From an uncultured bacterium (GTDB lineage Bacteria > Patescibacteriota > Doudnabacteria > UBA920): DNA of 64,000 nt. The notes beneath the pieces are model-generated. The model had not been told where the DNA came from. It saw only the letters and a list, made by a program, of their open reading frames with translations, and did not search any database. Every line of letters starts with the position of its first letter. Position 1 is the first letter of the stretch. The stretch is from NCBI GenBank assembly GCA_963749445.1, contig CAVVMJ010000004.1, forward strand, positions 93,015 to 157,014. Reading direction: 5' to 3'. This document shows, piece by piece, positions 6,384-29,254 of the stretch. A program made the position numbers and the translations under genes.

Positions 6384-6384
6384 C

Positions 6385-7320: not shown

Positions 7321-7340
7321 ACCGCTGACCCGTTTGGCAA

Positions 7341-8008: not shown

Positions 8009-8009
8009 A

Positions 8010-8218
8010 TCCTATTAATGGTAGCAAGGTATAGGGTGTGGCGGCCAGTACAGAAATAAGTAGCAAGGTATAAGGTGTGGCGTCCGGTGTGGTTGTAAGG
8101 AATAGGTTTTAGGTAACATATACCTTAAAACCTACTACTGCACCGGGCGCCAAAACTAATACCCTATTACCATTCCCCGTACCGGCCGCCATAACTTATA
8201 CCCTATTACATATTCTTC
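8010..8218. repeat. large hairpin repeat, GGCGGCCAGTAC family (copy b, duplicated arms)
   Basis: ggtgtggcggccagtacag...gtaccggccgccataactta. Confidence 0.65.
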
Positions 8219-8219
8219 A

Positions 8220-10166
8220 ATGCGTGATCCCTTCAAAGTTTACACTTCCTTAAGTAATCAAAAAAACCGGCGGCCGTTGGATTGGGACGAGTCGGCGGCG
8301 GATACCCAGTCCGGCGTGGATGACGTTTACGACAGCGACCGTCGCCCGCCTACCCTGCGCGCCCTGGCGGTTTTTGCCGCCCTGGCGTTTGTTTGCCTGG
8401 GGATGCGGATTTTTTATTTGCAGATTGTCCGCGGCCACGAGTTTCGGCTGTTGTCGGAAAACAACCGGATCCGAAGCCAAGTTGTGTTGGCCCCCCGCGG
8501 CAAAATTTTGGACAGAAGCGGACAGGTCTTGGCCCAAAACACGGCCAGCTTTAATTTGGTGGCCATCGCGTTTGATTTGCCTAAAATCGGGTTAAGCCAG
8601 GAAGTTACCGCCTTGGCTGCCGAATTCGGCTTGGACGCCGGCGACGTGCTGGATAAAATCAGTGCGGTGCCGAAAAATTCCATTGAGCCCATAGTTATCA
8701 AACAAAACGTCAGCCGGGACCAGAGCCTGTTGTTTGAAACCGAGTCCAGCCGGTTTTTGGGATTTTCCGTGGAAGAAATTCCGGTGCGGGATTACGCGGA
8801 TGCGCCGGCTTTTTCCCACGTTTTGGGTTATACCGGACTGCTTAGTCCGGGCGATTTGGTCGGGTTGGACCAAAATGCCTACGCCAGCGAAGACTATATA
8901 GGCAAGCTCGGCATTGAACAGCAGTATGAAAAATATCTCCACGGGCAAAACGGCCAGGATTTGGTGGAGGTTGACGCCACGGGCAAGCTGCTGGATGTCT
9001 TGGGGGAGAACCCGCCCGTTCCCGGCAATACGCTAATTTTGAATATTGACAAGGATTTGCAGGCCCAACTTTACGCGGCGCTGCAGGCCAATGTTGGTTC
9101 GCAGCGCGGCGCTGCTGTGGCCATTAATCCTAAAAACGGGCAGGTGCTGGCTTTGGTGAGCAGTCCGGGTTTTAACAATGATTTATTTGCTCCCGGCATC
9201 AGCCAGGCCGATTATCAGGCATTATTGAATGATAAAAATCAGCCGTTATTCAACCGCGCCATAGCCGGCACTTATCCGCCCGGGTCAACTTCCAAACCCA
9301 TGACCGCCACTGCCGGACTGCAGGAAGGGGTCATTACCGACAGTACTGTAATTTACGATAACGGCGTCATCACCGTGCCCAATCAGTTCGGCGGCGTGGC
9401 ATACGATTTCCACGGGTGGAAGCCCGGCGGCCTCGGGCCAATGACAGTGCGCAGCGCGATTGCCATGAGTTCCGACATCTTTTTTTATGAAGTAGCCGGC
9501 GGCAGCCCCAACGGCTCCCTGGCGGGTTTGGGCGCGGACCGCTTGGCCGAGTACTTCCGCAAATTCGGTTTGGGCAAACCGTTGGGCATTGACATCCAAG
9601 GCGAAAAGGGCGGGCTGGTGCCGGATCCGGCCTGGAAAATGAGTTATTACAATAACGACCCGCTCTTGGGCAAATGGTATTTGGGCGATACCTACCATAT
9701 GGGCATCGGCCAGGGCGATGTTTTGGTCACGCCGCTGCAGGCCGCGGAATGGACCGCCATTGTGGCCAACGGCGGCACGGGCTACGTGCCGGAAATCGCG
9801 CAAAAAGTGATGGATGAAAACGGCAAAGTTTTGTGGCAAAACCAGCCTAAAGTTTTGGTGTCCAATATTGCTTCGGCGGCCAATATGAAAATCGTACAGG
9901 AAGGCATGCGCCAGACCGTAACCGCGGGCACGGCCAAAGCGTTGATGTCTTTGCCGATAAGTTCAGCCGGCAAAACCGGCACTTCGCAGTTTGACGATTC
10001 CAATCCGGCCAAGACCCACGCCTGGTTTACGGTTTACGCGCCATACGAAGACCCGCAAATCGTGATTACGGTTTTGGTGGAGGCCGGCGGCGAAGGCAAC
10101 GCCGCGGCCGAACCCATCGTCAAAAACGCCTTGCAGTGGTGGGCGACAAATAGGTATAAGAAATAA
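8220..10166 (+). CDS. mrdA: penicillin-binding protein 2 (elongasome transpeptidase)
   Basis: STSKP (SxxK), SSD, KTGT motifs; N-terminal TM; follows mreBCD. Confidence 0.9.
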   Translation: MRDPFKVYTSLSNQKNRRPLDWDESAADTQSGVDDVYDSDRRPPTLRALAVFAALAFVCLGMRIFYLQIVRGHEFRLLSENNRIRSQVVLAPRGKILDRSGQVLAQNTASFNLVAIAFDLPKIGLSQEVTALAAEFGLDAGDVLDKISAVPKNSIEPIVIKQNVSRDQSLLFETESSRFLGFSVEEIPVRDYADAPAFSHVLGYTGLLSPGDLVGLDQNAYASEDYIGKLGIEQQYEKYLHGQNGQDLVEVDATGKLLDVLGENPPVPGNTLILNIDKDLQAQLYAALQANVGSQRGAAVAINPKNGQVLALVSSPGFNNDLFAPGISQADYQALLNDKNQPLFNRAIAGTYPPGSTSKPMTATAGLQEGVITDSTVIYDNGVITVPNQFGGVAYDFHGWKPGGLGPMTVRSAIAMSSDIFFYEVAGGSPNGSLAGLGADRLAEYFRKFGLGKPLGIDIQGEKGGLVPDPAWKMSYYNNDPLLGKWYLGDTYHMGIGQGDVLVTPLQAAEWTAIVANGGTGYVPEIAQKVMDENGKVLWQNQPKVLVSNIASAANMKIVQEGMRQTVTAGTAKALMSLPISSAGKTGTSQFDDSNPAKTHAWFTVYAPYEDPQIVITVLVEAGGEGNAAAEPIVKNALQWWATNRYKK

Positions 10167-10715
10167 ATGTCTCCACATATGAAACTAATTTTAATTGACG
10201 GCGGCCCGGCATCAGGCAAAAATACTCTAGGAGAATTATTATCTGATAAGCTTCGCAAGCTTGGAGGCAGGGCCGTGCTTTTGGATTTAGACGCGTATGT
10301 TGAAAAATTTAATCCCAAATGGATATGGGACAACGAGCAGGAAAAAGACAAAGACCAATTCCAAGCAAGGGTTGATATCTCTAAAGATATTGATAAATAT
10401 CTTTTAGGAGATTTTATTATTGTCGTAATTGGAGAAAGCTTTTTATCAAAAGATGACGTTATTCGTTTTGTGAAAAAATTAAAAGTAGCGTCTCCAGTCT
10501 ATCTATACCATCTAAGTGCCCCTTTTTTTCTAAGGGTGCAAAGACTGTATCAAAGAGGCCCTCATTCGTTGATTGATTTAGAAAAAGACCAAAAGGATCG
10601 TGATGCAGTCAGTCAATGGCCAGGGTACGTTTATGAGAACATCCATTCCCCGGAAGTAGACGCATCCAGATTACTATCGCTGATTCAAGAAGGCAACGGC
10701 TTACTAAATTTTTAG
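10167..10715 (+). CDS. P-loop kinase-like protein (zeta-toxin/chloramphenicol-phosphotransferase-like fold?)
   Basis: Walker A LIDGGPASGKNTLGEL; ~180 aa; AT-rich relative to flanks. Confidence 0.4.
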   Translation: MSPHMKLILIDGGPASGKNTLGELLSDKLRKLGGRAVLLDLDAYVEKFNPKWIWDNEQEKDKDQFQARVDISKDIDKYLLGDFIIVVIGESFLSKDDVIRFVKKLKVASPVYLYHLSAPFFLRVQRLYQRGPHSLIDLEKDQKDRDAVSQWPGYVYENIHSPEVDASRLLSLIQEGNGLLNF

Positions 10716-11449: not shown

Positions 11450-12283
11450 ATGATTATTGATGGCAAGAAAATTGCGTCCGCGATATTATTAGATTTGAAA
11501 CAAAAAGTCGGCCAATTGCCTTTCCAGCCGGTGTTTTGCGATGTGCTGGTGGGGGATAATAAGGTTTCGGCCAGTTATGTAAGGATGAAAGCCAAGGCCG
11601 CGGAAAGAATCGGGATTAAATTCCGCGCGGCGAATTTTTCGGCAGGTGTCGGCGTGCAGGATCTCATCGCGGAAATCAAATCCATCAGCCAAGAACCCAA
11701 CATGTGCGGCTTGATTGTGCAATTGCCGTTACCGAAAAATTTGCCGCGGCAGGAGATTTTGGATGCCATAAAGCCAGAAATTGACGTTGACTGCATGGGC
11801 AGCAAGAATTTGGCGGATTTTTATCGGGGAAATATCCGTTTTGCGCCGCCCACGGCCGTGGCCATAATGGCAATTTTGGAAAGTTTGGGCGTTGATTTAT
11901 CGGCAAAAAGGTTTTTGGTCGTCGGCCAGGGAGAATTAGTCGGCAAACCGGTGACTTTTTTGTTAAAGAAAAAAGGTTATAATACAGATATCGCGGACAT
12001 CAATACCGAGAATACCGATGAGCTTTTAAAATCAGCGGATGTAGTAATTTCCGCCACCGGCAAAGCGGGACTTATCACCGGCGAAAAAATCAAAAAAAGT
12101 TCTATTATTATTGATGCGGGCAGTTCTGAATCAAACGGCGGCATTGTCGGGGACGCGGATTTTGGCAGCGTTTCATCGGTGGTATCTTATTTATCGCCGG
12201 TCCCAGGCGGCGTCGGGCCGGTGACGGTGGCGATGCTGTTAGGTAACGTTGTAAAATCTGCAAAAAATAAACTAGTCATCTAA
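11450..12283 (+). CDS. folD: methylenetetrahydrofolate dehydrogenase/cyclohydrolase
   Basis: MIIDGKKIASAILLDLKQKV..., Rossmann VVGQGELVGKP, ..PVPGGVGPVTVAMLL. Confidence 0.9.
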   Translation: MIIDGKKIASAILLDLKQKVGQLPFQPVFCDVLVGDNKVSASYVRMKAKAAERIGIKFRAANFSAGVGVQDLIAEIKSISQEPNMCGLIVQLPLPKNLPRQEILDAIKPEIDVDCMGSKNLADFYRGNIRFAPPTAVAIMAILESLGVDLSAKRFLVVGQGELVGKPVTFLLKKKGYNTDIADINTENTDELLKSADVVISATGKAGLITGEKIKKSSIIIDAGSSESNGGIVGDADFGSVSSVVSYLSPVPGGVGPVTVAMLLGNVVKSAKNKLVI

Positions 12284-12368
12284 CAGTAACCGATTTCGGA
12301 AAATCGGATAAATCAGAAAAATCGGAAGCTCCGATTTATCCGACCTCCGACCTCCGACCTTCCGAACC

Positions 12369-18867: not shown

Positions 18868-18962
18868 GCGGAGCGAACAACAATATTTTTCTCCCCCTCT
18901 GGGGGAGATGGCCGCAGGCCAGAGAGGGTGTTTCTGGCAGGGGGGTTAAAAGTTTAAAAAAT

Positions 18963-18990
18963 GGCGGCCTTCGGCCGCCGTTTTGTTTTA
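18963..18990 (+). terminator. rho-independent terminator after receiver gene
   Basis: ggcggccttcggccgcc followed by gttttgtttt. Confidence 0.6.
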
Positions 18991-19194
18991 TTATTAATTT
19001 TTTGACGGCCGTCAAAAAATTAATAATTTGATTTACGTCTGCAAAAATTGATAGGTTATTTTTTTATTGGAGAAAGGATGGCAAAAAAGTTATCAAATTT
19101 TGAGGGGTGGAGGTGGGGGAGTTGACAGCGCAACTTCCCCCACCGTGTCGGCGATCGGCCGCGCGGGTGCGCGACGGATGCCGAAAATTACGCG

Positions 19195-19422
19195 CTAGTG
19201 AGGGATCGCGGGCTCAGAGGCGCTGTCCCTTAGCAGTGTGGCGACCTCACCGTTTTCGGGACGAAGTCCCTTGAAGCGTCTCCCGTCATCGTGCCGAACC
19301 TCCAAGTAGTAAGAGGGGCTCGACGCAAGGGGTCCCGTGAAGCTAAGGATGGTCACTCCGTCGACCCTAATCCCGACCCTGATTTCGGGAATTCTGACCG
19401 TAAGTGTTTCCTGCACGTACAT
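19195..19422 (-). CDS. small hypothetical protein in a GC-rich island (start MYVQETL with SD caggaggg)
   Basis: strong SD 5 nt before ATG; composition visibly more GC-rich than surrounding genome; no recognisable motifs. Confidence 0.3.
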   Translation of the reverse strand: MYVQETLTVRIPEIRVGIRVDGVTILSFTGPLASSPSYYLEVRHDDGRRFKGLRPENGEVATLLRDSASEPAIPH

Positions 19423-19510
19423 TGTGCCCTCCTGGGCGTTATGAAATTCGGCCGCAACTTCCGGCCGCAAAGATAATAATTACATAAACTATCATCTTTT
19501 CGACCACAAG

Positions 19511-19546
19511 ACAAAATCAAAAACCCCGGGCCGCGAGGCCCGGGGT
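19511..19546 (-). terminator. rho-independent terminator (minus strand)
   Basis: ccccgggcctcgcggcccgggg stem followed on minus strand by tttttgatttt. Confidence 0.6.
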
Positions 19547-19742
19547 TTGGAGTTTGAATCAACTTATATCAAAACTCTTCCCATGCCAAGCGGCGCCGGA
19601 GTAATAATAATGATTATGCTGTTGGAAGAATGTATTCTGCGCATTTGTGGTATTATAGCAGGGCAAAAATTTTTGTCAAATGAAGAAGCGGGCCAATGCT
19701 TCTTCTCCGTTGAAGCCTGGCCCGCCGTCGCTTTCCCTCCGG

Positions 19743-19946
19743 CTATCCACTACCCCCTTCTTGTTTTGGAATCATAACCGAATATTCTTCGACGCTGACA
19801 CGTTCATGCCCATCGGGCGTCTTGTTTATACGACGGTATATCAACGTCGTATGTGTTGCAGAGTTTCCAATTTGGAAAACCCTGCCTTTTGTCCCGTCGG
19901 GTAATTTCACCTCGACGATTCTTTTTCCGTCTCGGATGAGTTTCAT
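19743..19946 (-). CDS. small hypothetical protein (start MKLIRDGK, SD ggaggg)
   Basis: 67 aa, SD 6 nt upstream of ATG; terminator downstream. Confidence 0.35.
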   Translation of the reverse strand: MKLIRDGKRIVEVKLPDGTKGRVFQIGNSATHTTLIYRRINKTPDGHERVSVEEYSVMIPKQEGGSG

Positions 19947-20215
19947 TTTACCCTCCGAATTGGCCGTAAAAATTATGGCTAATTCGCAAGGTAAAACAAA
20001 AACCACCCATTGCGGTGGTGTGAGCAAAATGTAAGTTTTTTGTACTTTTTACATCTTGTTTATCCCAACCGCAAAGGCGACCATCTTAGTGGTCTTGGTC
20101 TTCTTGGTTGTGGCAAAAGCAAAATGCATATATTAAAATTTTATCAGCAGATTGTAATTTTGTCAAATGGGGACAAATGTAGTAGAATATCTTTGTGTCA
20201 ATTGTTAATCGTTAA

Positions 20216-20803
20216 TTGTCAATTGTTATGATATTATCAGACCGCGACATCAAAAAAGCCATTAAAGCCGGGCGCGTACAAATTACGCCAAAGCCTGATT
20301 TTAAGGTCCAGTTGGGACCCTGTTCCATTGACCTTCATTTAGGCGACAGGTTCGCGGTGTTTAAGCATTCCAGCAAAGCGTACGTGGATTTGAACAACCC
20401 GCTGACAATTAACAGCATCATGAGCGAAATCGTGGTGCCCAAGGGCGAGGCTTTTATAATGCAGCCCGGGGATTTTGCTTTGGCCACCACGGTGGAGAAT
20501 TTAAAGTTGGCAGATGACATAGTGGGTAAAATTGAGGGACGCAGTAGCCTTGGCCGGTTGGGGATAATTGTGCACGGCACGGCTTCCATATTTGATCCGG
20601 GATGGGACGGCAAGCCCACAATGGAGCTCGGCAATTTGGGCGTGATGCCCGTGGCTTTGTATCCGGGAATGCGCGTCTGCGCCTTTACTTTTGAGGAACT
20701 TTCGAGTCCCGCGGAAAACCCGTTTAATAAAAACCGGGCGCACAATATCTACAACAAACAAAAAGACGCCAGGCCGAAGATTACCAAGCGGACAATATTC
20801 TAA
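20216..20803 (+). CDS. dcd: dCTP deaminase
   Basis: MILSDRDIKKAI..GPCSIDLHLG...EGRSSLGRLGI.. typical Dcd/dUTPase-fold motifs. Confidence 0.9.
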   Translation: MSIVMILSDRDIKKAIKAGRVQITPKPDFKVQLGPCSIDLHLGDRFAVFKHSSKAYVDLNNPLTINSIMSEIVVPKGEAFIMQPGDFALATTVENLKLADDIVGKIEGRSSLGRLGIIVHGTASIFDPGWDGKPTMELGNLGVMPVALYPGMRVCAFTFEELSSPAENPFNKNRAHNIYNKQKDARPKITKRTIF

Positions 20804-20839
20804 TGCCGTTGATTAGTCACTGACGGGTCTGAAAATTTG

Positions 20840-20938
20840 TTGATGGGCATCTTCGTGGTTCCATAAACGCTAACTGATGATTATCGGCTAACTATAAATA
20901 ACGGCCGAAGATTGTTTTGGCAAGGAGATGCCCATCAA
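20840..20938. mobile_element. MITE-like 99-bp element, copy 2
   Basis: ttgatgggcatcttcgtggttccataaacg...ggcaaggagatgcccatcaa. Confidence 0.85.
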
Positions 20939-20970
20939 TCTTAAAACGTACGTCCTTCGTAAATATTTGG

Positions 20971-21456
20971 TTATCTTTCTAACTCCAAAAATGTGTATTT
21001 CAAGCCCTCATATTTGCCTTCCTGCCGGAAGGTGATTTTTTTGAATTGGTCAAGATAAGGCGGGAAAAAAGTGTCGGCCTCGTATTCTTTATCCACAAGC
21101 GTGATGTAAAGTTTGTCCGCGCGCGGCAAAAATTGGGCGTAGATGGAGCCGCCGCCGATAATGAATATCTCATCCGGTTCATTTTTTTTGGCCTCAATAA
21201 TCGCCTCATCCAAAGAATGAACCACAGTGCATCCATCGGCTTTGTAGTTTGCGTCTTTCGCGATAACAATATTGGTACGGTGGGGGAGCGGACGGCCCAA
21301 AGATTCAAAGGTTTTACTGCCCATAATAATGGCGTGGCCGTTCGTCAGCTCCTTAAAGCGTTTTAAATCTTCGGGAATATGCCAGAGCAACCGGTTATTT
21401 TTGCCGATGGCCAAATTTTTCGCCACCGCCCCGATCATGCTGATTTTTGGTTGCAT
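20971..21456 (-). CDS. folA: dihydrofolate reductase
   Basis: ISMIGAVAKNLAIGKNNRLLWHIPEDLKRFKELT..IIMGSKTFESLGRPLP.R.NIV. Confidence 0.9.
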   Translation of the reverse strand: MQPKISMIGAVAKNLAIGKNNRLLWHIPEDLKRFKELTNGHAIIMGSKTFESLGRPLPHRTNIVIAKDANYKADGCTVVHSLDEAIIEAKKNEPDEIFIIGGGSIYAQFLPRADKLYITLVDKEYEADTFFPPYLDQFKKITFRQEGKYEGLKYTFLELER

Positions 21457-21502
21457 TATTTTTTCTTGTCTAATATCATTTCCGGCCGGAAATGATATTA
21501 GA

Positions 21503-21928
21503 CTAAATAATTCCCGCTAATTTTTTTTCCACGGCATCCATAACTTCGTCCATGGATTGATAGCGGATCAGACTAAATAACGGGCTGTTAATACCCAAAA
21601 CAAAGCGGCTGACATTGGCGCTTTTATGCGCCACGCCCAAAACCGGTCGGTGGCTGTTTAAAGCAGTGGCAATTTCAAAGCCCAGGCCGATGGAAGGGTG
21701 GCTGCAATCCGCGACCATCAAATCGCAGTTTTTTGCTCCGGCGGAGTTATGCTCAAACACATCTTGGTTAGTGCCGTTTTCCGGTTCCCGAAAATCTATA
21801 ATCGAATATTTTTGCCCAAGAGTCTTTTTTAGCTTTTCGATTTCGTCCTTGTATTCCTGCGGCGCATGGGTGAGCCCGCAGCCGACGTATATTGTTTTTC
21901 CGCCTTTGGCGGGCGTAATCTTAGTCAT
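21503..21928 (-). CDS. nucleoside 2-deoxyribosyltransferase-like (Rossmann) protein
   Basis: IYVGCGLTHAP...DLMVADCSHPSIGLGFEIA pattern resembling NDT/flavodoxin-like nucleoside-processing family. Confidence 0.4.
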   Translation of the reverse strand: MTKITPAKGGKTIYVGCGLTHAPQEYKDEIEKLKKTLGQKYSIIDFREPENGTNQDVFEHNSAGAKNCDLMVADCSHPSIGLGFEIATALNSHRPVLGVAHKSANVSRFVLGINSPLFSLIRYQSMDEVMDAVEKKLAGII

Positions 21929-21961
21929 GGTTGATGGTTAATTTTTAGGTTGTGATTTGAG

Positions 21962-22060
21962 TTGATGGGCACCTTCGCTGTTCCACAATCGCTGATTGAT
22001 TGTTGTCGGATAGTGTAGGATTGAGATCGAAGATTGTGTTGGCAAGAAGGTGCCCATCAA
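21962..22060. mobile_element. MITE-like 99-bp element, copy 3 (slightly diverged TIRs)
   Basis: ttgatgggcaccttcgctgttccacaatcg...ggcaagaaggtgcccatcaa. Confidence 0.8.
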
Positions 22061-22066
22061 TCTTGA

Positions 22067-22399
22067 TTAATTAATAATCGTATGCTTGGGCAAAGCGGCC
22101 AAAACGGCAAAAATAATCAGCGTAAAAATTAGCAGCCAGCCTAAGGTGCAAAGGAAAAGTTTGATGCCTTCGGATTTTTTGCCATCCATATACCAAAGCA
22201 CGGGACGGCCTAAAACTAAGGAGCCGACTATGGCGGCGGACAGGACAAACAATGAAAGTATGGCAACGCCGGCGACAATCCCGTTGCCCGGCCCGAACCA
22301 GCGGTTTCCGTTGTTCATTATTAGGGCGACAAGGGCAATGTATGCTACGGTCCCTAAAGCGTGCAAAAATCCAAGAAGAGCGAGTTTTTTATTAGTCAT
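22067..22399 (-). CDS. hypothetical small membrane protein
   Basis: three predicted TM helices. Confidence 0.4.
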   Translation of the reverse strand: MTNKKLALLGFLHALGTVAYIALVALIMNNGNRWFGPGNGIVAGVAILSLFVLSAAIVGSLVLGRPVLWYMDGKKSEGIKLFLCTLGWLLIFTLIIFAVLAALPKHTIIN

Positions 22400-22461
22400 G
22401 ATTTTAGGATTATTTGATCAGTTTTGGTCAAATCCTACTATCCACTGTAAGATGATAGAAT

Positions 22462-22899
22462 TCAGCCTAAATTAATTTGCTTGATGAATGCCAGTGCGGA
22501 CATAATGGCGTTTTTGACATTGGGGAGGAGGTTTAAATTGTCTAATTTATTCAGATCCACCCATTCTGGCGTTGTTTCATTTTTTGCAGTAAGAGTGCCG
22601 GAATATTTGGAACACAAAAAGATTTCCATGGAAGCAAGCTTGGTTCCGTTCTTGAAAGTGATTACCGCTTCGTAATAGTTATTTGGGAATGGATGTAAAT
22701 CTTCCGTAGTCGTAAGTAATCCTGTCTCTTCCTTAAGCTCTCTAACGGCGGCATCAATAGCTTTTTCTCCGGGTTCCAGCCTGCCGCAGGGCAAGCCGTA
22801 AGTGTCATTTAGGTGTTCCGCTTCTTGCCCGTGTTTGACCAATAATACTTCGCTGTTTTTAAAGATTATCACCCCGGCTCCAATTTTTTCGGGTTTCAT
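22462..22899 (-). CDS. NUDIX hydrolase (start MKPEKIG; ORF-track N-term overlaps thyA)
   Basis: Nudix box GRLEPGEKAIDAAVRELKEETGL. Confidence 0.8.
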   Translation of the reverse strand: MKPEKIGAGVIIFKNSEVLLVKHGQEAEHLNDTYGLPCGRLEPGEKAIDAAVRELKEETGLLTTTEDLHPFPNNYYEAVITFKNGTKLASMEIFLCSKYSGTLTAKNETTPEWVDLNKLDNLNLLPNVKNAIMSALAFIKQINLG

Positions 22900-22948
22900 A
22901 TGTTTGCAATCTCCCATACTCCAGCGTATGGGAGATACGGAAAAATTG

Positions 22949-23941
22949 TTAGGATTTTTTTTGCACGAATTTTTTCCAGGAATCGGTGGCAAGCCCGCCG
23001 GTCGGGGAGAGTTCGGCTTTAATCGGCGGGTGCGCGTCATAGCCTTCAATTCTGGCGTGTTCGGGCTTGAAGTCGTCAATTTCCTTAACGGAAGGGTCAA
23101 GGATTAATTTTGGGAAAGCCTTGGGTTCGCGTTTAAGTTGTTCCTTAACAGCGTCAAAATGGTTTTCGTAAATATGGGCGTCGCCGAAAGTATGGATAAA
23201 CTCGCCGGGTTTATTGCCGGTAACCTGGGCCAAAATTACGGCTAAGAGCGCATAGCTGGCAATGTTAAACGGCACGCCCAAAAACATATCGGCGGTGCGC
23301 TGGTAGAGCTGCAGGCTAAGTTTGCCGTTTTTGACATTACATTGCCACATATTGTGGCAAATGGGGAACCGGCACGCTTCTTCGGGCAGGGCCATTTTAT
23401 ATAAATACTCGGGATTCCAGACGCTGACTAAGGTATTGTGCGCATCGGGATCATCACGCAGTTCGTTGACGAGCCACTGGACCTGATCCACCGTGCGCCC
23501 GTTTTTCCCCGGCCACCTGCGCCACATTTCTCCGTAAATATGCTTGAGCTCGCCGTGCTGTTTGGCAAATTCCGCATCCGCGGCAATCTTGGCTATAAAT
23601 TTATCCTTGGTCATTTCGGGCTCCTGTCCTTTTTCCATTTTTTCCCGATAGATTTTGTAAGGATAGTCATCCCAAATATGGACCCCGTTGTCAACCAAAT
23701 ATTTGATATTAGACTGGCCGGACAGAAACCAAAAGAGTTCTTGCAAAACGCCTTTCCAAAAAACTTTTTTTGTCGTCAATAGCGGGAAGCTTTCACTTAA
23801 GTCAAACCTAATCTGCTGGCCGAAAATACTGTAGGTAATAACCCCAGTGCCTTTGTCGGTTTGCTTAACGCCATTGTCTAAAATGTCTTGCAGAAGATTA
23901 AGGTATTGGTATTCGGGATGTTTGTCTTTCATAAATCTCAA
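22949..23941 (-). CDS. thyA: thymidylate synthase (ThyA family, long form with insert; dUMP-specific Asn retained)
   Basis: ..FPLLTTKKVFWKGVLQELFWFLSGQSN..PICHNMWQ (catalytic Cys)..LQLYQRTADMFLGVPFNIASYALL. Confidence 0.85.
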   Translation of the reverse strand: MRFMKDKHPEYQYLNLLQDILDNGVKQTDKGTGVITYSIFGQQIRFDLSESFPLLTTKKVFWKGVLQELFWFLSGQSNIKYLVDNGVHIWDDYPYKIYREKMEKGQEPEMTKDKFIAKIAADAEFAKQHGELKHIYGEMWRRWPGKNGRTVDQVQWLVNELRDDPDAHNTLVSVWNPEYLYKMALPEEACRFPICHNMWQCNVKNGKLSLQLYQRTADMFLGVPFNIASYALLAVILAQVTGNKPGEFIHTFGDAHIYENHFDAVKEQLKREPKAFPKLILDPSVKEIDDFKPEHARIEGYDAHPPIKAELSPTGGLATDSWKKFVQKKS

Positions 23942-23972
23942 ATTAGTTTAAATAGGTAAATTAAGGATAATT

Positions 23973-24109
23973 GCGGAGCCTCTCCTCCTATTTATAGGAG
24001 GAGTACCCTGCGTCAGCAGGGGGAGGTGGTATTAATACTTGCCGATTAGTACCACCTCGTCCCGCTTCGCGGGACACCCCTCCTATGCAAGGAGGGGAAT
24101 GCTCCGCGG
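23973..24109. repeat. RPE-like modular palindromic element, intergenic copy (modules in swapped order)
   Basis: gcggagcctctcctcctatttataggaggagtac...gtcccgcttcgcgggacacccctcctatgcaaggaggggaatgctccgcgg. Confidence 0.8.
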
Positions 24110-24136
24110 TTATTCTTAATAAAAAAGTACGGTCTT

Positions 24137-24820
24137 TTATTCAATGTTAAATATTTTCTCTGTGCCGTAGTAATCCTGCCAATTTTTGTTGTAATAGTCA
24201 AACATCCGCGCTAACCTATCCTGAGGCAATTCATCGAGGTTTAGCTCTTCCATCAGCCGACGCAATAGAGCCTTGGTTTCGTCAGCTTTATTTTTATCAT
24301 CTACCACCATTTCAAATTCCGACAAGTAGCCGTAGCCCGCGTTTTTGTCGATACTCACATTGGCGTTTTTATACTTGAACTCCTGCCGTTCCCGAGACCA
24401 TTTGGCTTGGTATTTGAATCCCGATTTCAGAACTAGCTTATCTAATTCTTCGATTGAGATGTTGGCTTTTGATTCCCATTCTAGGCGCGCGGTGCCGTTG
24501 GAACTTGTTGTATCGTCGACGGACGCTTTAATTACAAGTATGACTTTCCCATCAGCCCATCTCGTTCGCACGGAAAAATCCTTAGCTTTGTCCGCGAGTT
24601 CCTTGAATTTTGTCAGCTGATCTTTTTCAACGACATCTTTGGTATTTTCATAAAGCCGGTTTAAATTCCCGTCAACAAAATAATGGTTCAGCTGTTTATG
24701 CGAGCCGATTTCCACTAGTTTTGGGTCTGCCGCGCGCATTTTTCGCCTTAACTCATCGGTCTTTTCCTTACCCCCGAGCAAGCTCTTTATCTCAATTTCA
24801 AAATTATGATTTGTACTCAT
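24137..24820 (-). CDS. CYTH-domain protein (triphosphate tunnel metalloenzyme family)
   Basis: N-terminal EIEIKSLL (ExExK signature). Confidence 0.7.
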   Translation of the reverse strand: MSTNHNFEIEIKSLLGGKEKTDELRRKMRAADPKLVEIGSHKQLNHYFVDGNLNRLYENTKDVVEKDQLTKFKELADKAKDFSVRTRWADGKVILVIKASVDDTTSSNGTARLEWESKANISIEELDKLVLKSGFKYQAKWSRERQEFKYKNANVSIDKNAGYGYLSEFEMVVDDKNKADETKALLRRLMEELNLDELPQDRLARMFDYYNKNWQDYYGTEKIFNIE

Positions 24821-24843
24821 TTATTTTTGTCAATTTTGTTCAA

Positions 24844-25452
24844 TTATGTCAATTTTGTCATTTTTTTTAAATCTCCCTCTACAAACCGGTTGCGGGCAAA
24901 GCGGTACCAGTCAACGGGATCGGATTTTTTTATGGCTTTCCAGAGTTTTTTGGCCGATTTGGTATAAAACCGCGAATAAATGATTTTGCGGTTGTCGTCC
25001 CATGCCTTCATGTGCAGTTTGCCCGCGGCTTTTTGTTCCTGGATTTCAAAATCCACGTCCAGCCAGTCTGCGTCTTTGACAATTTTTGCTTCAATAGTTT
25101 TGCGTTCCTCGTATTCGCGCCACAGGGAAACCATTTCTTTTTCCAGCAAAGTGTTTTTAAAAATATCCTTGATTGCCTTTAGCTCATCGCGTTTGGTGTA
25201 TTGCCTGGAAATGTAATGCACGTCGCCGGTACGGCTTTCGGCTACGTCGTGGACCAACGCCATCTTCATTATTTTTGCCGTATTGCCTTTGCCCTCCATC
25301 TTATTTAAAATCAAGGCAATCCAAACTACCCGAAAATGATGGTCGGCCAAATTGGCAAAATCCGGCCCCAAAAACTGTTTCCAGGCGCGCTGGATAAAGC
25401 GCAAACAGCCGAGTTCGTATAAAAGTTCCAGGTCACGGTTATTTTTTGGCAT
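24844..25452 (-). CDS. HD-domain phosphohydrolase (YfbR-like 5'-deoxynucleotidase family)
   Basis: HFRVVWIAL...ALVHDVAESRTGD HD motif. Confidence 0.75.
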   Translation of the reverse strand: MPKNNRDLELLYELGCLRFIQRAWKQFLGPDFANLADHHFRVVWIALILNKMEGKGNTAKIMKMALVHDVAESRTGDVHYISRQYTKRDELKAIKDIFKNTLLEKEMVSLWREYEERKTIEAKIVKDADWLDVDFEIQEQKAAGKLHMKAWDDNRKIIYSRFYTKSAKKLWKAIKKSDPVDWYRFARNRFVEGDLKKMTKLT

Positions 25453-25500
25453 GTTTTGATTATAGCAAAATAAACCCCAAAATGCTATAATTTTAAGGCT

Positions 25501-26064
25501 ATGAAAAGCCCTCAAAAACAAGAGAAAATGATTATCGGCCTGGTCGGGGAAAAGCTGGCTGGCAAGGATACCTTGGCCAATTTTTTAGTGCAAAAATACG
25601 GGGCGTACCACGCGCGGTTTACCCATTTATTGGACGAGATTTTGAATATTTTGGATTTGCCGATTTCCCGCCGCAACGAAATAGATTTAGGCCTTGACCT
25701 GCGTAAAATTTTCGGCGAACGGGTTTTGGGCACAGCGCTTATCGGCCGTGTCCAAAAATCCAACGCGCCTATGGCGGTTATAAACGGTATTAGAATGGAC
25801 GAGATGGAAGTAGTCAAAAAAATCGGTGCGACAATTATTTACGTGACCGCTTCGCCGCAAATCCGCTATGAGCGTTATATGCAGCGGCACGAAAAAGTTG
25901 ATGACGGCAAAATGACTTTTGTAGAATTTTTGGAGCAGGAAAAAGAGCGAACCGAAATCGGCATTCCGGAACTGGGCGCTACGGCGGATTTTAAGATTGT
26001 GAATGAGGGGAGCGTGGAGGAGTTATATAAGCGAGTCGAAGAAATTCTAGAAAAGTTGACCTAA
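25501..26064 (+). CDS. deoxynucleoside monophosphate kinase-like P-loop kinase (T4 gp1-like pattern)
   Basis: IIGLVGEKLAGKDTLANFL resembles the G.K.SGKDT.A.F N-terminus of phage dNMP kinases. Confidence 0.5.
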   Translation: MKSPQKQEKMIIGLVGEKLAGKDTLANFLVQKYGAYHARFTHLLDEILNILDLPISRRNEIDLGLDLRKIFGERVLGTALIGRVQKSNAPMAVINGIRMDEMEVVKKIGATIIYVTASPQIRYERYMQRHEKVDDGKMTFVEFLEQEKERTEIGIPELGATADFKIVNEGSVEELYKRVEEILEKLT

Positions 26065-26213
26065 ATTGTCGTTAATCGGTGTACGGCGGCGCTGCGGGTA
26101 TCGGTAAGCGTCAAGCGGTTTACGGCCGCAAGCCGTGTGCCACCGGACGATACGCGCGGCGCTGACGATAAACGAATTACGATTCGGGTATTGGAATTTA
26201 TTTAGAATAATTT

Positions 26214-26930
26214 ATGAAACTTCCATTCGGAAAAAACAGAAAAGTTGGACTAATCAACCGCGGGCGATTAATCGTGCTGGACGGCATTGACGGCAGCGGC
26301 AAAAGCACGCAGCTAAAGATGCTTGATGATGAGCTAAAATTTATCGGCTACAAAACTGAGGTCATCCACTTTCCCCAGCACGGCAGTCGCTCTGCTGCCA
26401 TGGTTGACGATTATTTGGCCGGCAAGTTCGGTTCGGTGAATCCTTACGCCGCCTCGGCGTTTTACGCCGTGGACCGGTTTGAGGCCGGCCCGCGCATTGA
26501 AGCCTGGCTAAAAGAGGGCAAAGTGGTGCTGTCCGACCGTTACGTTACGGCCAATGCCGCGCACCAGGGCGGAAAAATCGTCGACCATTTTGAACGTTTA
26601 AAGTTTTTCAAGTGGCTGGATAATCTGGAATACACGGTGTTCGGCATCCCCAAACCCGACCTTAACATTATTTTAAATGTGCCTGCCGAGGCTGCCATCC
26701 AACTGCTAAAATTGCGCGCCGAAGACGCTCATCACGTAGACAAAATGCACGAACCTAACAAACAGCATCTGGTTAACAGCTATAACGCTTTTGTGGAAAT
26801 TTCGCGGCTGTTTCCCAACACTAAATTAATTGAATGCGTGCAGAATAACGAACTTCTGCCACCCGAGCAAATCCACAACAAAGTTTGGGATTTTGTCAGA
26901 AGAATAGCATTAAAGGATTTTAAGGCATAA
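26214..26930 (+). CDS. tmk: thymidylate kinase
   Basis: LIVLDGIDGSGKSTQ P-loop, DRY-like ..SDRYV.., lid region. Confidence 0.8.
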   Translation: MKLPFGKNRKVGLINRGRLIVLDGIDGSGKSTQLKMLDDELKFIGYKTEVIHFPQHGSRSAAMVDDYLAGKFGSVNPYAASAFYAVDRFEAGPRIEAWLKEGKVVLSDRYVTANAAHQGGKIVDHFERLKFFKWLDNLEYTVFGIPKPDLNIILNVPAEAAIQLLKLRAEDAHHVDKMHEPNKQHLVNSYNAFVEISRLFPNTKLIECVQNNELLPPEQIHNKVWDFVRRIALKDFKA

Positions 26931-27525: not shown

Positions 27526-27963
27526 ATGTATAAACAGACCGGAAGTAAGCGTTACCTTGTAATGCTTTGGGTAGGTAAGCATGCTAATCATCGTTTTGAG
27601 GAGATGGGCAGAGCGCTCTGCGTTGCTCCGGAAGCGCTTGTGTCGCTTCTTCTCGAAAATATGGTGCGCAGGCTTAAAAAACAACCTGACATTCTGCCAT
27701 GGGTGTCAAAGTTGTTTTTAGAGATTGGAGAACCTCCGGTTCATCCGATCCACGCCGACCTGAAGCATGAGGTTTATTTTACCCTGATAGGGCATGCTCA
27801 TGACCGCCGGCTGGCAGTCAGTGATCTCGCCAGCAGACTCTTGGCGGTAGGGCTGCCGTTTTGGGATTACCAGCCGGCCATTGGTTTGACCGGCAGGGCT
27901 CAGCAGGAGGAATTGAAGCGCGGGATCAGAATCGATCTTGCGCTTGAGTTTGCCCAGCTTTGA
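27526..27963 (+). CDS. hypothetical protein (GC-richer segment)
   Basis: ORF only; no recognisable motif. Confidence 0.25.
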   Translation: MYKQTGSKRYLVMLWVGKHANHRFEEMGRALCVAPEALVSLLLENMVRRLKKQPDILPWVSKLFLEIGEPPVHPIHADLKHEVYFTLIGHAHDRRLAVSDLASRLLAVGLPFWDYQPAIGLTGRAQQEELKRGIRIDLALEFAQL

Positions 27964-28021
27964 GTGCAGAGGTTCGCGTAAGTTTGCCGCGGCCTCTTTT
28001 TTTTGTCATAATACCTATGAA

Positions 28022-29254
28022 ATGAACGAACTCATCAAGCGGCTGGAAAATCTCAAATCCGAAATCTCAAATCTGAAATCCCATTTGGATTTGCCCCAAA
28101 AGGAGCAGAGGATCTTGGAATTGGAAGACAAGATGCAGGTTCCAAATTTTTGGAATGATAATGAAAACGCCCAAAGAATATCAAAGGATTATAACCAGTT
28201 AAAGCTGTTTGTTGATTTTTGGAAAGATTTGGAAAAGGATATCCAGGAAACACTGGATTTGGTTAAAGACACTCCAACCACCCCGTCTGCTTTGCAGACA
28301 CCCCTCCTTGAAAAGGAGGGGAATGCTCCGCATGTATCCCCGAACAAACGCGGAGCCTCTCCCCCTGACAAGGGGGAGTACTCCGCGAAGCGGGGGGAGG
28401 GGGTTGGAGATATAAAAATATCCGATGCGGATTATCTTAGGCAACATACGGAACAGCTGGAGGAACAATACCGCAAAAACCGTTTTGTTGCGCTGCTTTC
28501 CAAAAAATACGACGACCACAACGCAATTTTTTCTCTGCACAGCGGCGCCGGGGGGCTTGACGCCCAGGATTGGGCGGAAATGCTCCTGCGGATGTTTTTA
28601 CGCTATTGTGAACGCCGGGGATTTATTACAGAAATTTTAGAATCAAACCGCGGAGCGGAAGGCGGCATTAAATCGGCTGTTGTGGAAGTTCACGGGCCGT
28701 ATGCTTACGGCTTGCTAAAAAGCGAGGCCGGCGTTCATCGGCTTGTCCGATTGTCGCCGTTTAATCCCGCGCACACCCGCGAAACCTCTTTCGCGCTTTT
28801 GGAAGTTTTGCCGCTTTTGGAAGATGTAGAAAAAATTGACATCGACCCCAAAGATTTAAAAATAGAAGCCAATACCGCCTCTGGCCACGGCGGGCAATCG
28901 GTCAATACCACTTATTCCGCCATCCGGATTACGCATATTCCCACCGGCCTTAAAGTCAGCATCCAAAACGAGCGCTCCCAGCACCAAAACCGCGAAATCG
29001 CCATGAAAATTTTGATGGCTAAGTTGAAAACTTTGGAAGAGGAAAAATTGCAACAGGAAAAACTGGAAATTCGTGGGGAATTTAAATCGGCCGAATGGGG
29101 AAACCAAATTCGCTCCTACGTTATCCATCCCTACAAACTGGTCAAAGACCACCGTACCGGTTTTGAAACCTCAGACCCGGATAGCGTTCTAAACGGTGAA
29201 CTGGACGAGTTTGTGGAAAGATATTTGGAAAAAACCGCGGTGACCGCTGAATAG
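28022..29254 (+). CDS. prfB: peptide chain release factor 2 (single uninterrupted ORF) with in-frame palindromic repeat insertion
   Basis: GGQ (SGHGGQSVNTT), SPF motif (RLSPF) = RF2; start MNELIKRLENL; residues TPTTPSALQTPLLEKEGNAPHVSPNKRGASPPDKGEYSAKRGEGVGD encoded by repeat 28275..28407. Confidence 0.9.
   Translation: MNELIKRLENLKSEISNLKSHLDLPQKEQRILELEDKMQVPNFWNDNENAQRISKDYNQLKLFVDFWKDLEKDIQETLDLVKDTPTTPSALQTPLLEKEGNAPHVSPNKRGASPPDKGEYSAKRGEGVGDIKISDADYLRQHTEQLEEQYRKNRFVALLSKKYDDHNAIFSLHSGAGGLDAQDWAEMLLRMFLRYCERRGFITEILESNRGAEGGIKSAVVEVHGPYAYGLLKSEAGVHRLVRLSPFNPAHTRETSFALLEVLPLLEDVEKIDIDPKDLKIEANTASGHGGQSVNTTYSAIRITHIPTGLKVSIQNERSQHQNREIAMKILMAKLKTLEEEKLQQEKLEIRGEFKSAEWGNQIRSYVIHPYKLVKDHRTGFETSDPDSVLNGELDEFVERYLEKTAVTAE
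28275..28407 (+). repeat. RPE-like modular palindromic element, in-frame copy inside prfB
   Basis: ccaaccaccccgtc..gacacccctccttgaaaaggaggggaatgctccgc..gcggagcctctccccctgacaagggggagtactccgcgaagcggggggagggggttgg. Confidence 0.85.

Follow-up and report, generated by a model that had tools for sequence, protein, structure and literature searches.

The question raised by this locus is whether a compact set of genes for deoxynucleotide metabolism on a Patescibacteria (CPR) chromosome serves ordinary thymidylate synthesis or a phage-like pathway of base modification. A sequence-only reading of the window, i.e. of the whole 64-kb stretch of DNA analysed here, had described ten contiguous genes. The ORF check found all ten at the coordinates it had given, Pfam and NCBIfam backed the domain calls, and the motifs it had quoted (FNIASY, PICH and the GKDT P-loop) are in the sequence. 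Its view of a coherent module for dUMP/dTMP synthesis and dNTP housekeeping in a reduced (CPR) genome stands; the phage or base-modification flavour it had sensed does not, on the grounds of GC content, absence of tRNA genes, flanking genes and phage distribution given below. Two peculiarities escaped it: the thymidylate synthase (TS) ThyA has a remodelled phosphate site and C-terminus, and thyA is paired almost without exception with a gene for a CYTH protein, or triphosphate-tunnel metalloenzyme (TTM).

An operon runs on the minus strand in the order HD, CYTH, thyA, NUDIX, membrane ORF, DNPH1-like gene and folA; dcd is convergent with it and the kinase-tmk pair divergent. The block sits between rplA and prfB (rplK/rplA upstream, prfB/ftsE/ftsX downstream), and rplA or prfB also flank the cluster in L005, L011, L012, L014 and L017. 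The order seen in the window, with tmk and the kinase upstream of CYTH-thyA, recurs in L005 and about ten metagenome loci, most of which also have HD, folA and dcd; the core of deaminase, CYTH, thyA and folA was found in dozens of loci. The block is thus conserved in relatives, and since they repeat the gene set the clustering is not due to chance. The GC content of the block (0.44-0.45, against 0.42-0.54 for the window) reveals no compositional anomaly. Together with the same chromosomal position in relatives, this marks the block as housekeeping rather than phage-derived: it is very probably a housekeeping TS locus, neither phage nor base modification. The fuller reading, that of a vertically inherited thymidylate-synthesis and dNTP-housekeeping locus of the CPR chromosome including the CYTH role and the rebuilt ThyA discussed below, is favoured with more reserve.

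The alternative is a phage-like base-modification module, in which ThyA would hydroxymethylate dUMP and a dNMP kinase would phosphorylate the modified nucleotide. The conserved place between rplA and prfB and the unremarkable composition argue against it, as does the lack of any tRNA gene in the 64-kb window. CYTH had no match in 50,697 GenBank phage records, and 2.9 million IMG/VR contigs yielded a single, distant one; in favour of the module, one IMG/VR phage contig (L080) has a CYTH homologue and a CPR-type TS. Taken with the ThyA and kinase results below, these data leave a phage module extremely improbable.

The thyA gene (22949..23932, minus strand; PF00303, 334 bits; NF002496, 362.6 bits against a cutoff of 325) codes for a long-form TS of a CPR-specific clade. 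The protein has the same fold as canonical ThyA (E. coli, and the long-form L. casei and E. faecalis TS, PDB 3uwl), with 43-48% identity (47% to the solved E. faecalis TS), and shares with them the catalytic residues, the long L. casei-type insert and the pairing with DHFR. Residues C146, H147, E58, W80, Y94, R166, D169, N177, H207 and Y209 are invariant in the 121 family members on which the column statistics are based, and position 167 is Ser or Thr in 120 of them. Asn177 and the catalytic Cys being present, the earlier claim that the enzyme is uracil-directed was upheld. Whether it methylates or hydroxymethylates had been left undecided, and this is now largely settled for reductive methylation. 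Pyrimidine hydroxymethylases belong to the same superfamily, and one of them, the SPO1 dUMP hydroxymethylase gp29, also keeps Asn177. In neighbour-joining (NJ) trees, built without support values, the CPR clade nevertheless falls inside TS proper, with SPO1 gp29 and the T4 dCMP hydroxymethylase gp42 as distant outgroups; both of these retain R126 and neither is linked to DHFR. Of 76 CPR loci, 62 have folA no more than 10 kb from thyA, and the operons of L015, L025, L036 and 16 of the 39 CYTH-anchored loci also include glyA and folD. A pyrimidine hydroxymethylase releases THF, not DHF, and so has no need of DHFR; folA, with glyA and folD in relatives, is needed only if the product is dihydrofolate, which favours reductive methylation. 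The tree position and the folate genes both count against the phage module. On these grounds ThyA probably makes dTMP from dUMP, a claim we hold with good confidence.

The phosphate site of this enzyme departs from that of canonical TS, in which R126' and R127' are normally donated by the partner subunit. Among the 121 family members, R126' is replaced by His in all, R127' by Asn in 119, R21 by Lys in 98 and W83 by Tyr in 119; the window protein has K, Y, H and N at positions 21, 83, 126 and 127. Ahead of the catalytic Cys the clade has a seven-residue insertion with the RFPICH motif, which never varies. Where the free terminal carboxylate of canonical TS shuts the active site, the CPR protein carries an extension of about 17 aa, conserved in the clade according to the column statistics. 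The AF2 model has a pLDDT of 83.7; confidence drops in the insertion and in the tail. Of the 150 nearest TS cluster representatives, 128 retain all three Arg; R127-only variants also occur among them, but loss of R126 is confined to the CPR clade, bar one aberrant sequence and fragments. A natural precedent is the Vibrio parahaemolyticus (VAAP-clade) TS, where R127' is Gly: it still turns over dUMP, though with a raised Km, and was presented by its authors as the first natural loss of a phosphate-binding Arg; L. casei TS also tolerates mutation at position 127' (PMC6005164). The VAAP-clade enzyme, however, has lost R127' only, whereas the CPR clade has lost R126' and R127', usually R21, and has in addition the insertion and the C-terminal extension. 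The CPR protein is a true TS, but both the phosphate clamp and the C-terminal lid have been rebuilt across its clade, the invariant Arg of the seven-residue insertion likely replacing the lost partner-subunit arginines.

So many changes might also mean that the enzyme has abandoned dUMP and methylates dUDP, dUTP, deoxyuridine or another uracil compound through an altered pocket. The clade-wide replacement of R21, R126' and R127', the changed lid and the constant presence of a triphosphate-binding neighbour all fit such a shift. Against it, R166 is invariant, Ser/Thr167 nearly so, and the 3'-OH ligands H207 and Y209 are kept; Lys or His stand at lost Arg positions, and the ThyA group with the RFPICH insertion (group A) gains an invariant Arg. 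The alternative partners of thyA (Dcd/Dut, MazG) are from families that, where characterised, release nucleoside monophosphates, tmk is kept in the cluster, and the R127'Gly Vibrio TS works on dUMP. A change of substrate is therefore very unlikely.

The strongest result of the analysis is the pairing of thyA with CYTH (24137..24820, minus strand; 38.6 bits against a cutoff of 23.2; EIEIK motif intact). Its fold is complete, and the ExExK motif and every basic and acidic residue of the tunnel are in place. CYTH and thyA are co-directional in 77 of 77 loci. CYTH lies upstream of thyA in 76 of them; the two are direct neighbours in 39 and stand one gene apart in 30. In the 39 CYTH-anchored metagenome loci, thyA is no more than 5 kb away in 38, and 37 carry a deaminase for dCTP or dCMP. 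The literature searched mentions no such fixed place upstream of thyA for any TTM. Among thyA-anchored species genomes, the slot is occupied by CYTH in 25 loci (among them L001, a Logan contig with the same sequence as the window), by a 179-aa DCD/dUTPase-family gene in six and by MazG in one, and none of these loci has CYTH together with a Dcd/Dut-family or MazG gene in the slot; these are raw counts, taking no account of phylogeny. The three alternatives are interleaved in the ThyA tree, and where a window-type Dcd lies within about 3 kb of thyA, one of CYTH, Dut-family or MazG is alongside in almost every locus. The 64-kb window itself holds no second Dcd/Dut or MazG gene.

Sharing one slot to the exclusion of two NTP pyrophosphohydrolase families points to catalytic equivalence. 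In sister lineages the place between cytosine deaminase and thyA is held by dUTPases (trimeric Dut, bifunctional Dcd:Dut, MazG-type/dimeric all-alpha), and characterised Dcd/Dut and MazG family members release nucleoside monophosphates. There is no sequence or fold relationship between these enzymes and CYTH, the likeness being one of proposed reaction, drawn from context. We tentatively suggest that CYTH may act on dUTP to supply or safeguard dUMP, as what gene context would make a non-orthologous dUTPase substitute. The class IV cyclase-like proteins to which it is nearest in structure split the alpha-beta bond and set PPi free, which speaks for this role. Many prokaryotes are without any known dUTPase, and new ones have been anticipated (PMC5122711). 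Several points weigh against this suggestion. In L012, L107, L108 and L120 the deaminase that accompanies CYTH acts on dCMP, so that dUTP is bypassed. Those TTM NTPases and triphosphatases that have been characterised take off the gamma-phosphate and would turn dUTP into unusable dUDP; we know of no TTM/CYTH enzyme that hydrolyses a dNTP to dNMP and PPi. The operon NUDIX could also be the dUTP hydrolase instead. Two co-occurrences, of CYTH with a short, motif-poor dUTPase-fold ORF in L097 and with MazG-like genes in phage L080, were likewise counted against a dUTPase substitute.

CYTH might instead be tied to ThyA in another capacity: as a signalling nucleotidyl cyclase, an inorganic triphosphatase/pyrophosphatase, or a partner or regulator of ThyA. 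In structure it comes closest to class IV adenylyl cyclase-like proteins (PH1012, Y. pestis AC-IV and PH1819), which share ExExK and the tunnel residues at 14-22% identity, and the label 'adenylate cyclase class IV' is attached to the family in some sources. The product of a class IV-type cyclase would be a signalling nucleotide that reports dNTP status. However, CYTH scores 32.7 bits against the cyaB equivalog cutoff of 57.95. It differs from the cyclase-like subgroup in having an additional helical insert and, at the C-terminus, a conserved stretch of about 30 extra residues. That C-terminal extension, which is helical, could be an interaction surface, CYTH was seen only with group A ThyA, and it still adjoins thyA where dCMP deaminase replaces dcd, all of which would suit a ThyA partner. 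But group A ThyA also occurs with a Dut-family or MazG gene and no adjoining CYTH (L003, L011, L015, L020 and L025), so that CYTH is not required as a ThyA subunit, and the C-terminal tail of ThyA differs among CYTH-bearing loci. The mutual exclusivity described above also disfavours a role other than that of a dUTPase, and we regard such a role as rather unlikely.

With CYTH as a dUTPase substitute, the pathway would run as follows. Dcd, by family assignment, would deaminate dCTP to dUTP; CYTH may convert dUTP to dUMP and PPi, the role of the Dcd/Dut-family or MazG gene in the sister-lineage slot; ThyA, on the strength of its family, residues and folA link, would turn dUMP and methylene-THF into dTMP and DHF; FolA would regenerate THF and Tmk phosphorylate dTMP. 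The HD nucleotidase, NUDIX, DNPH1-like protein and UPF0200-type kinase would be variable accessories that trim or recycle the (d)NMP and dNTP pools. What is unusual within such a housekeeping cluster is a TS with a rebuilt phosphate pocket next to a near-constant CYTH neighbour.

The dCTP deaminase gene dcd (20216/20228..20803, plus strand; PF22769, 153.7 bits; TIGR02274, 187.4 bits against a cutoff of 92.8) has its likely true start at the ATG at 20228, and its orthologues (56-82% identity) adjoin CYTH/thyA in relatives. The dihydrofolate reductase gene folA (20971..21456, minus strand), last of the operon, matches DHFR_1 (PF00186) over its full length with 191 bits. The thymidylate kinase gene tmk (26214..26930, plus strand; PF02223, 81 bits) is under both NCBIfam dTMP-kinase cutoffs (NF005923, 110 bits against 193) and adjoins the kinase or CYTH in many relatives.

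That P-loop nucleotide kinase (25501..26064, plus strand) had been called T4-gp1-like. It has the GKDT P-loop and matches PHROG 139 'dNMP kinase' (7e-18), but the T4 gp1 likeness (E 1e-4) stops at the P-loop: the family model PF21448 is matched over residues 11-48 and T4 gp1 itself over residues 11-38, which again disfavours a phage module. Although T4 gp1 and UPF0200 kinases both share the GKD(T/S) Walker A motif with it, the closest solved relative is the archaeal UPF0200 protein SSO1041 (PDB 3lw7 / 3h0k), matched over its full length (E 4e-14), and the kinase was placed in the UPF0200/'dNMP kinase-like' group; PRK08356 gives 92 bits, below its cutoff of 189. The phage side can claim, besides PHROG 139, a likeness to a few Bacillus-phage kinases; the search hit 15 phage records, with kinases at 26-29% identity. 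The substrate is probably a pyrimidine dNMP, as far as sequence can tell.

Among the accessories, the HD phosphohydrolase (24844..25452, minus strand; HD_3 PF13023, 93 bits; YfbR-like, 34.9), first gene of the operon and called at 202 aa on the identical Logan contig, resembles HDDC2/YfbR-like 5'-(deoxy)nucleotidases, its PDB relatives including HDDC2, YGL101W and YfbR. The MutT-like NUDIX hydrolase (22462..~22917, minus strand; PF00293, 61.3 bits; MutT TIGR00586, 53.6 bits, below the cutoff of 97.9) is a predicted dNTP pyrophosphohydrolase. Its start was taken at Met62 of the long ORF; the overlap with thyA described earlier arises only with the longest, TTG-start ORF and is hereby corrected. 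In L005 and L029, too, thyA is directly followed by a NUDIX gene. The small protein at 21503..21928 (minus strand), formerly read as deoxyribosyltransferase-like, does belong to the NDT/DNPH1 superfamily (PF05014, 27.7 bits, just under the gathering score of 28.8), but among solved structures DNPH1/Rcl, not a transferase, come closest (E 8e-4, the alignment covering the SxGxGxE catalytic-Glu segment); the protein is possibly a dNMP N-glycosidase, and its gene is present in three related loci only. The 110-aa hydrophobic ORF (22067..22399, minus strand), a predicted membrane protein, is lineage-specific, with no Pfam, NCBIfam or PHROG match and no tblastn match in 75 related loci.

A hairpin-rich repeat element (23975..24115, minus strand), which stands outside the pathway, is inserted between CYTH and thyA, where relatives have about 5 nt. 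Five hairpins, enclosed by a terminal stem, make up the element (MFE -80 kcal/mol, z = -9.1), and related CCTCCT...AGGAGG hairpins are found at four other places in the window (6 matches versus 0 expected).

The ten ORFs that the sequence-only reading had named in the block at 20216-26930 are all present and carry the domains attributed to them (Pfam/NCBIfam), and the gene calls were confirmed by an identical 5-kb Logan contig. Seven of the genes form a minus-strand operon running from 25452 to 20971, in the order HD phosphohydrolase (HD_3/YfbR-like), CYTH, thyA (long form), NUDIX hydrolase (domain supported by a profile match), a 110-aa hydrophobic membrane ORF without family, an NDT-like gene and folA (191 bits). 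Judging from coordinates and strands, dcd (TIGR02274, 187 bits) is convergent to this operon and the kinase-tmk pair divergent from it. The block is flanked by rplK/rplA and a response regulator upstream and by prfB/ftsE/ftsX downstream; the same genes are flanked by rplA or prfB in the related loci L005, L011, L012, L014 and L017.

The nearest thyA loci in a species-dereplicated genome collection were all from Patescibacteria/CPR MAGs (labelled Minisyncoccia, Paceibacterota, Parcubacteria, Doudnabacteria and similar, some labels being evidently wrong). The thyA-anchored set comprised 75 genome loci, tabulated as 76 with the Logan contig identical to the window (L001): folA lies at most 10 kb from thyA in 62 of the 76, and a dCTP-deaminase-family gene was within reach in 34 and CYTH in 25. 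A CYTH-anchored set of 80 metagenome loci contained 39 with at least 1.5 kb on both sides; within 5 kb, 38 of these 39 have thyA, 37 folA and 37 a cytosine-nucleotide deaminase. The order seen in the window, with tmk and the kinase upstream of CYTH and thyA, is shared by L005 and about 10 metagenome loci, most of which also have HD, folA and dcd; the membrane ORF and the NDT-like gene are sporadic among relatives. Lack of conservation, which the sequence-only reading had named as counting against it, was thus not observed in either set. The block is an ordinary, conserved chromosomal housekeeping thymidylate operon of a CPR bacterium, not a mobile island.

The thyA product (22949-23932, minus strand) scored above the curated cutoffs (PF00303, 333.9 bits versus 24.3; TIGR03284, 361.5 versus 108.35; NF002496, 362.6 versus 325) and is 43-48% identical to the solved thymidylate synthases (TS) of E. 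faecalis, L. casei and human. A weak tblastn match of ThyA at 52452-52586 was discarded as spurious, being a histidine-kinase ATPase domain. All 121 members of the clade, the window included, share C146, H147, E58, W80, Y94, R166, D169, N177, H207 and Y209 (E. coli numbering); the uracil-specifying Asn and the catalytic Cys noticed from the sequence thus hold throughout, and the Asp177 of dCMP enzymes was found in none of the 121. In a neighbor-joining (NJ) tree with canonical TS, the CPR sequences form one clade within TS proper, with the dUMP hydroxymethylase SPO1 gp29 and the dCMP hydroxymethylase T4 gp42 as distant, long-branch outgroups.

Methylation by TS oxidises the folate to dihydrofolate (DHF) and so requires DHFR, while hydroxymethylases release THF. 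The window thyA shares its operon with folA, glyA and folD adjoin in L015, L025, L036 and many other loci, and these three loci have operons combining thyA, folA, glyA and folD, with or without dcd. Since the DHF produced by TS needs DHFR, this fixed linkage favours reductive methylation. Judged by genomic context only, ThyA would yield DHF and be coupled to DHFR and the folate cycle; hydroxymethylation of dUMP, which the sequence-only reading had kept as an option, finds no support in the tree or in the folA/glyA/folD linkage. The window itself has no glyA homologue in its 64 kb, though the gene adjoins thyA in many relatives; a folD gene (methylene-THF dehydrogenase/cyclohydrolase) lies at 11450-12283, 9 kb upstream of the block.

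Few enzymes have been studied as thoroughly as TS, in which the four arginines that bind the phosphate, and the C-terminal carboxylate, are regarded as near-universal. This carboxylate, free and shortly after the IKAP motif, closes the active site in one network with R21 and W83; the partner subunit donates R126' and R127'. The window enzyme keeps R166 alone among the arginines that bind the dUMP phosphate (R21, R126', R127' and R166), the others being K, H and N. We aligned it to E. coli ThyA together with its clade at 62% identity or more (group A): R126' is H in 121 of 121, R127' is N and W83 is Y in 119 of 121 each, and R21 is K in 98 of 121, a position where the register is ambiguous by one residue, yet most members are without Arg. 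Directly before the catalytic Cys, group A has a seven-residue insertion containing an invariant Arg (RFPICH), four residues from that Cys. At the other end, canonical TS finishes on A-P-V-A-V/I, about three residues after IKAP, whereas the window ThyA runs on past this motif with ELSPTGGLATDSWKKFVQKKS, part of a conserved group A extension (ELxPTGGLxTDSWKxF...). The sister group B, from Gottesmanbacteria and similar lineages (50-58% identity), has H or F at 21, K at 126 and H at 127; its insertion is of comparable size and its chain ends in ...VVGGF. As R21, W83 and the carboxylate share a network and R126' and R127' are both partner-donated, the changes are coordinated rather than scattered. 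AF2 models ThyA with a pLDDT of 83.7, less confidently at the insertion, the tail and the strands of the dimer interface.

How unusual this is was judged against the 150 nearest 50%-identity cluster representatives among 4,284 TS-like clusters. R21, R126 and R127 are all kept in 128 of the 150. R127 alone is lost in a few, three of them with Gly, of Vibrio type, and R126 is lost only in the clade with the insertion and GG tail, save for one aberrant sequence and fragments. Intermediates exist at the three positions: the cluster representative P0248 combines R, R and K with the insertion and an end in GGF; P0278 reads R, T and R. In 2018 a Vibrio TS in which only R127' is replaced (by Gly) was reported as the first natural case of a lost phosphate-binding Arg; it is active with a raised Km (PMC6005164, where the roles of TS residues are tabulated). 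Our literature search found no paper on the CPR form. Strong sequence evidence thus points to a CPR-wide, apparently undescribed TS clade in which phosphate site and C-terminal lid have been rebuilt. dUMP is probably still the substrate, given that R166 and Ser/Thr167 are kept, that His or Lys stands at lost positions and that the new Arg lies four residues away from the Cys. A large bacterial radiation with two to three of the arginines replaced and the lid rebuilt is a natural experiment in the construction of an active site, and is of relevance to TS-targeted inhibitors and to automated annotation.

The CYTH gene (24137-24820, minus strand), which belongs to the triphosphate tunnel metalloenzymes (TTM), lies 5' of thyA. 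In the 77 loci having both genes, the two are always co-directional, with CYTH upstream in 76; no gene intervenes in 39 of them, and in 30 a single one, a dcd paralogue, stands between the pair. L138, a CYTH locus, is an exception without thyA in its vicinity. The protein matches PF01928 (38.6 bits versus a gathering threshold of 23.2) and stays below the cutoff of the cyaB equivalog TIGR00318 (32.7 bits versus 57.95, partial match). It fits the TTM fold, with a β-barrel tunnel lined by basic and acidic residues in a confident AF2 model (pLDDT 92), and bears the ExExK motif (EIEIK) at its N-terminus: E8, E10 and K12 are invariant in 50 homologues, as are R85, R87, K98, R112, E114, E116, K140, R143, R145, D158, E168 and E170. 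A C-terminal extension of about 30 residues is also conserved. Database searching detects 3,037 members of the family (about 225 aa), of which the top 120 are 61-100% identical, the named ones among them being almost all Patescibacteria; identities among the closest members and the loci examined range from 50 to 85%. The idea that the long ThyA tail is strictly tied to CYTH, as a docking peptide, was rejected, since L003 and L011 bear the tail but no CYTH in the neighbourhood, and the CYTH-bearing L019-L024 end in other tails.

A simple pattern emerges when the slot between the deaminase and thyA is considered. In the thyA-anchored loci it is occupied by CYTH in 25, by a 179-aa protein of the DCD/dUTPase superfamily in six (L003, L011, L015, L020, L029 and L075) and by a MazG-family pyrophosphohydrolase in one (L025). 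The 179-aa protein matches Pfam DCD (95 bits), dUTPase (32 bits) and the archaeal-dUTPase model PRK02253 (71 bits), and its best PDB match is 4xjc, a dCTP deaminase of 177 residues, which we take to be the Bacillus halodurans enzyme that acts as both dCTP deaminase and dUTPase. In L025 the MazG-like protein drew no match in a PDB sequence search but clears the Pfam MazG model. No thyA-anchored locus has CYTH together with either alternative (zero overlap of 25 and 7 among 33 loci; naive hypergeometric ~2e-6, phylogeny ignored), and none of the 39 CYTH-anchored loci has a 179-aa, 157-aa or MazG gene; a caveat is L097, where CYTH occurs with a 121-aa ORF of dUTPase fold whose canonical motifs are apparently absent by eye. 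In the ThyA tree (NJ, no support values) the lineages bearing Dut or MazG are scattered among those bearing CYTH, which suggests several independent swaps of the slot gene. Three tandem Dcd/Dut paralogues (about 200, 157 and 179 aa) lie directly upstream of thyA in L029 (8219-9982) and L075 (8174-9963), two lineages without CYTH whose thyA is group-B-like.

Dut, Dcd:Dut and MazG-type enzymes all produce dUMP and PPi. The simplest reading is that CYTH, found in the same slot, does their job: it would turn dUTP into dUMP and PPi, thereby feeding ThyA and holding dUTP low. The resemblance would be of function and not of homology, as a Pfam search gave no match of CYTH to PF00692 or PF03819, hence no homology to trimeric Dut, dimeric or MazG dUTPases; on this context we place the chance that CYTH is a dUTP hydrolase just short of even. 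Class IV cyclases cut the α-β bond with PPi as the leaving group, so the structural kinship of CYTH with them fits the release of a nucleoside monophosphate better than removal of the γ-phosphate, an analogy that is only suggestive. To our knowledge, no characterised TTM hydrolyses dNTPs to dNMPs, and in the literature searched nothing relevant ties CYTH/TTM to dUTP, thymidylate synthase or CPR. The 64-kb window contains no Dcd/Dut gene besides dcd, and no MazG gene. Many prokaryotes were found by survey to be without any known dUTPase family, and unrecognised ones were anticipated (PMC5122711).

Other assignments have to be weighed. CYTH stays beside thyA in loci with a dCMP deaminase (L012, L107, L108 and L120), which counts against the dUTP model and would be expected if the two proteins were functionally coupled in some other way; that Dut-family and MazG genes take CYTH's slot in thyA-anchored loci, and never accompany it, speaks for the hydrolase, and we consider another coupling rather unlikely. 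The co-operonic NUDIX protein is an alternative candidate for the dUTP hydrolase, or Dcd itself might be bifunctional, combining dCTP deaminase and dUTPase; we found no reliable published determinant of mono- versus bifunctional Dcd in the literature searched. Returning to CYTH as the hydrolase, its association with thyA is strong, and we infer a candidate new type of dUTPase, apparently undescribed. The fuller proposal is more tentative, and we would sooner doubt it than hold it: a TTM-fold dUTPase class, swapped repeatedly with Dcd/Dut and MazG, would combine with a ThyA having an in-cis loop Arg in place of the trans Arg pair to form a distinct CPR pathway from dCTP to dTMP. A CYTH gene fixed upstream of thyA and exclusive with Dut and MazG makes a concrete candidate for a missing dUTPase, and one that is cheap to test. 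If true, it would extend TTM chemistry to α-β hydrolysis of dNTPs. For CPR biology, the result indicates that the reduced genomes keep a complete, though distinctive, route from dCTP to dTMP.

A few oddities were met among the deaminase-bearing loci. L012 encodes at 11505-12341 a 278-aa fusion of a cytidylyltransferase-like N-terminal part and a dCMP-deaminase-like C-terminal part, between folA and CYTH, as well as a standalone dCMP deaminase upstream of thyA. L072, from a Bacteroidales MAG (CALCHR010000151.1), has at 3826-4596 a TS-family protein with Asp for Asn at 177, the dCMP-specifying change; a gene resembling dCMP deaminases lies about 1.3 kb away. The TS-family gene, perhaps part of a prophage, may encode a dCMP methylase or hydroxymethylase.

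A phage origin of the block, or a role in base modification of the phage type that the sequence-only reading had brought up, was rejected on several grounds. The GC content is unremarkable (0.44-0.45, against 0.42-0.54 across the window), no tRNA gene is present in the 64-kb window, the rplA/prfB flanks are conserved in relatives, ThyA sits inside TS in the tree, and CYTH is nearly absent from phages, with no match in 50,697 GenBank phage records and one in IMG/VR. Nor does the kinase deserve the label 'T4 gp1-like': its match to PF21448 covers residues 11-48 only (of a 232-position model) and that to PDB 1dek residues 11-38, i.e. the P-loop. Its best solved relative is the archaeal UPF0200 protein SSO1041 (E 4e-14, full length). 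It also matches PHROG 139 'dNMP kinase' over its full length, and 15 phages, chiefly of Bacillus, have kinases that share 26-29% identity with it; 'dNMP-kinase-like' is a fair label.

The IMG/VR match, L080, is a 111-kb phage contig (UViG_3300041964_000014) with its notable genes at 200-10600. It carries a CYTH homologue (5908-6615, 38% identical) and a TS of CPR type that has K126 and S127, shares the insertion and ends in ...LVGGY. The two ORFs of this TS (9356-10045 and 10310-10600) stand about 265 nt apart, an intron-like interruption that recalls the td intron of T4; an intein-containing RNR and MazG-like, DUF1599 and NUDIX genes are also present. It is an independent co-occurrence of CYTH with a variant TS, and shows that phages can borrow the module, without the window locus being thereby phage-derived.

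The kinase, NDT-like, HD, NUDIX and membrane genes are variable accessories. The NDT-like protein falls just under the PF05014 gathering threshold (27.7 versus 28.8 bits), and its nearest solved proteins are the DNPH1/Rcl dNMP N-hydrolases (E 8e-4, a weak match), nearer than the transferases. The HD protein groups with the HDDC2/YfbR 5'-nucleotidases.

Between the response regulator and dcd lies a gene-poor stretch of 1.35 kb (18868-20215) containing hairpins that resemble terminators and, on the minus strand, two small ORFs (19195-19470, 91 aa; 19743-20027, 94 aa); it gave no Pfam or Rfam match and nothing above chance in a sensitive search. Rfam likewise returned nothing above chance for the 64 kb as a whole, and when the block was scanned for promoters and terminators the signals were at shuffle level. 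A hairpin-rich repeat of about 130-140 nt, made of four to five GC-rich hairpins of the CCCCTCCT...AGGAGGGG type, is present at 23975-24115, ~2100-2230, 28270-28410 and 46905-47045; CCTCCT-N(3-9)-AGGAGG occurs six times in the window versus 0 expected. The copy at 23975-24115, between CYTH and thyA, is closed by a terminal stem (MFE -80 kcal/mol, z -9.1), and relatives have about 5 nt at this site. The copy at 28270-28410 lies in frame inside prfB (release factor 2; ORF 27938-29254), whose PCRF domain it would lengthen by about 45 residues (…TPLLEKEGNAPHVSPNKRGASPPDKGEYSAKRGEGV…; Pfam match over residues 29-259, for a model of 194 positions).
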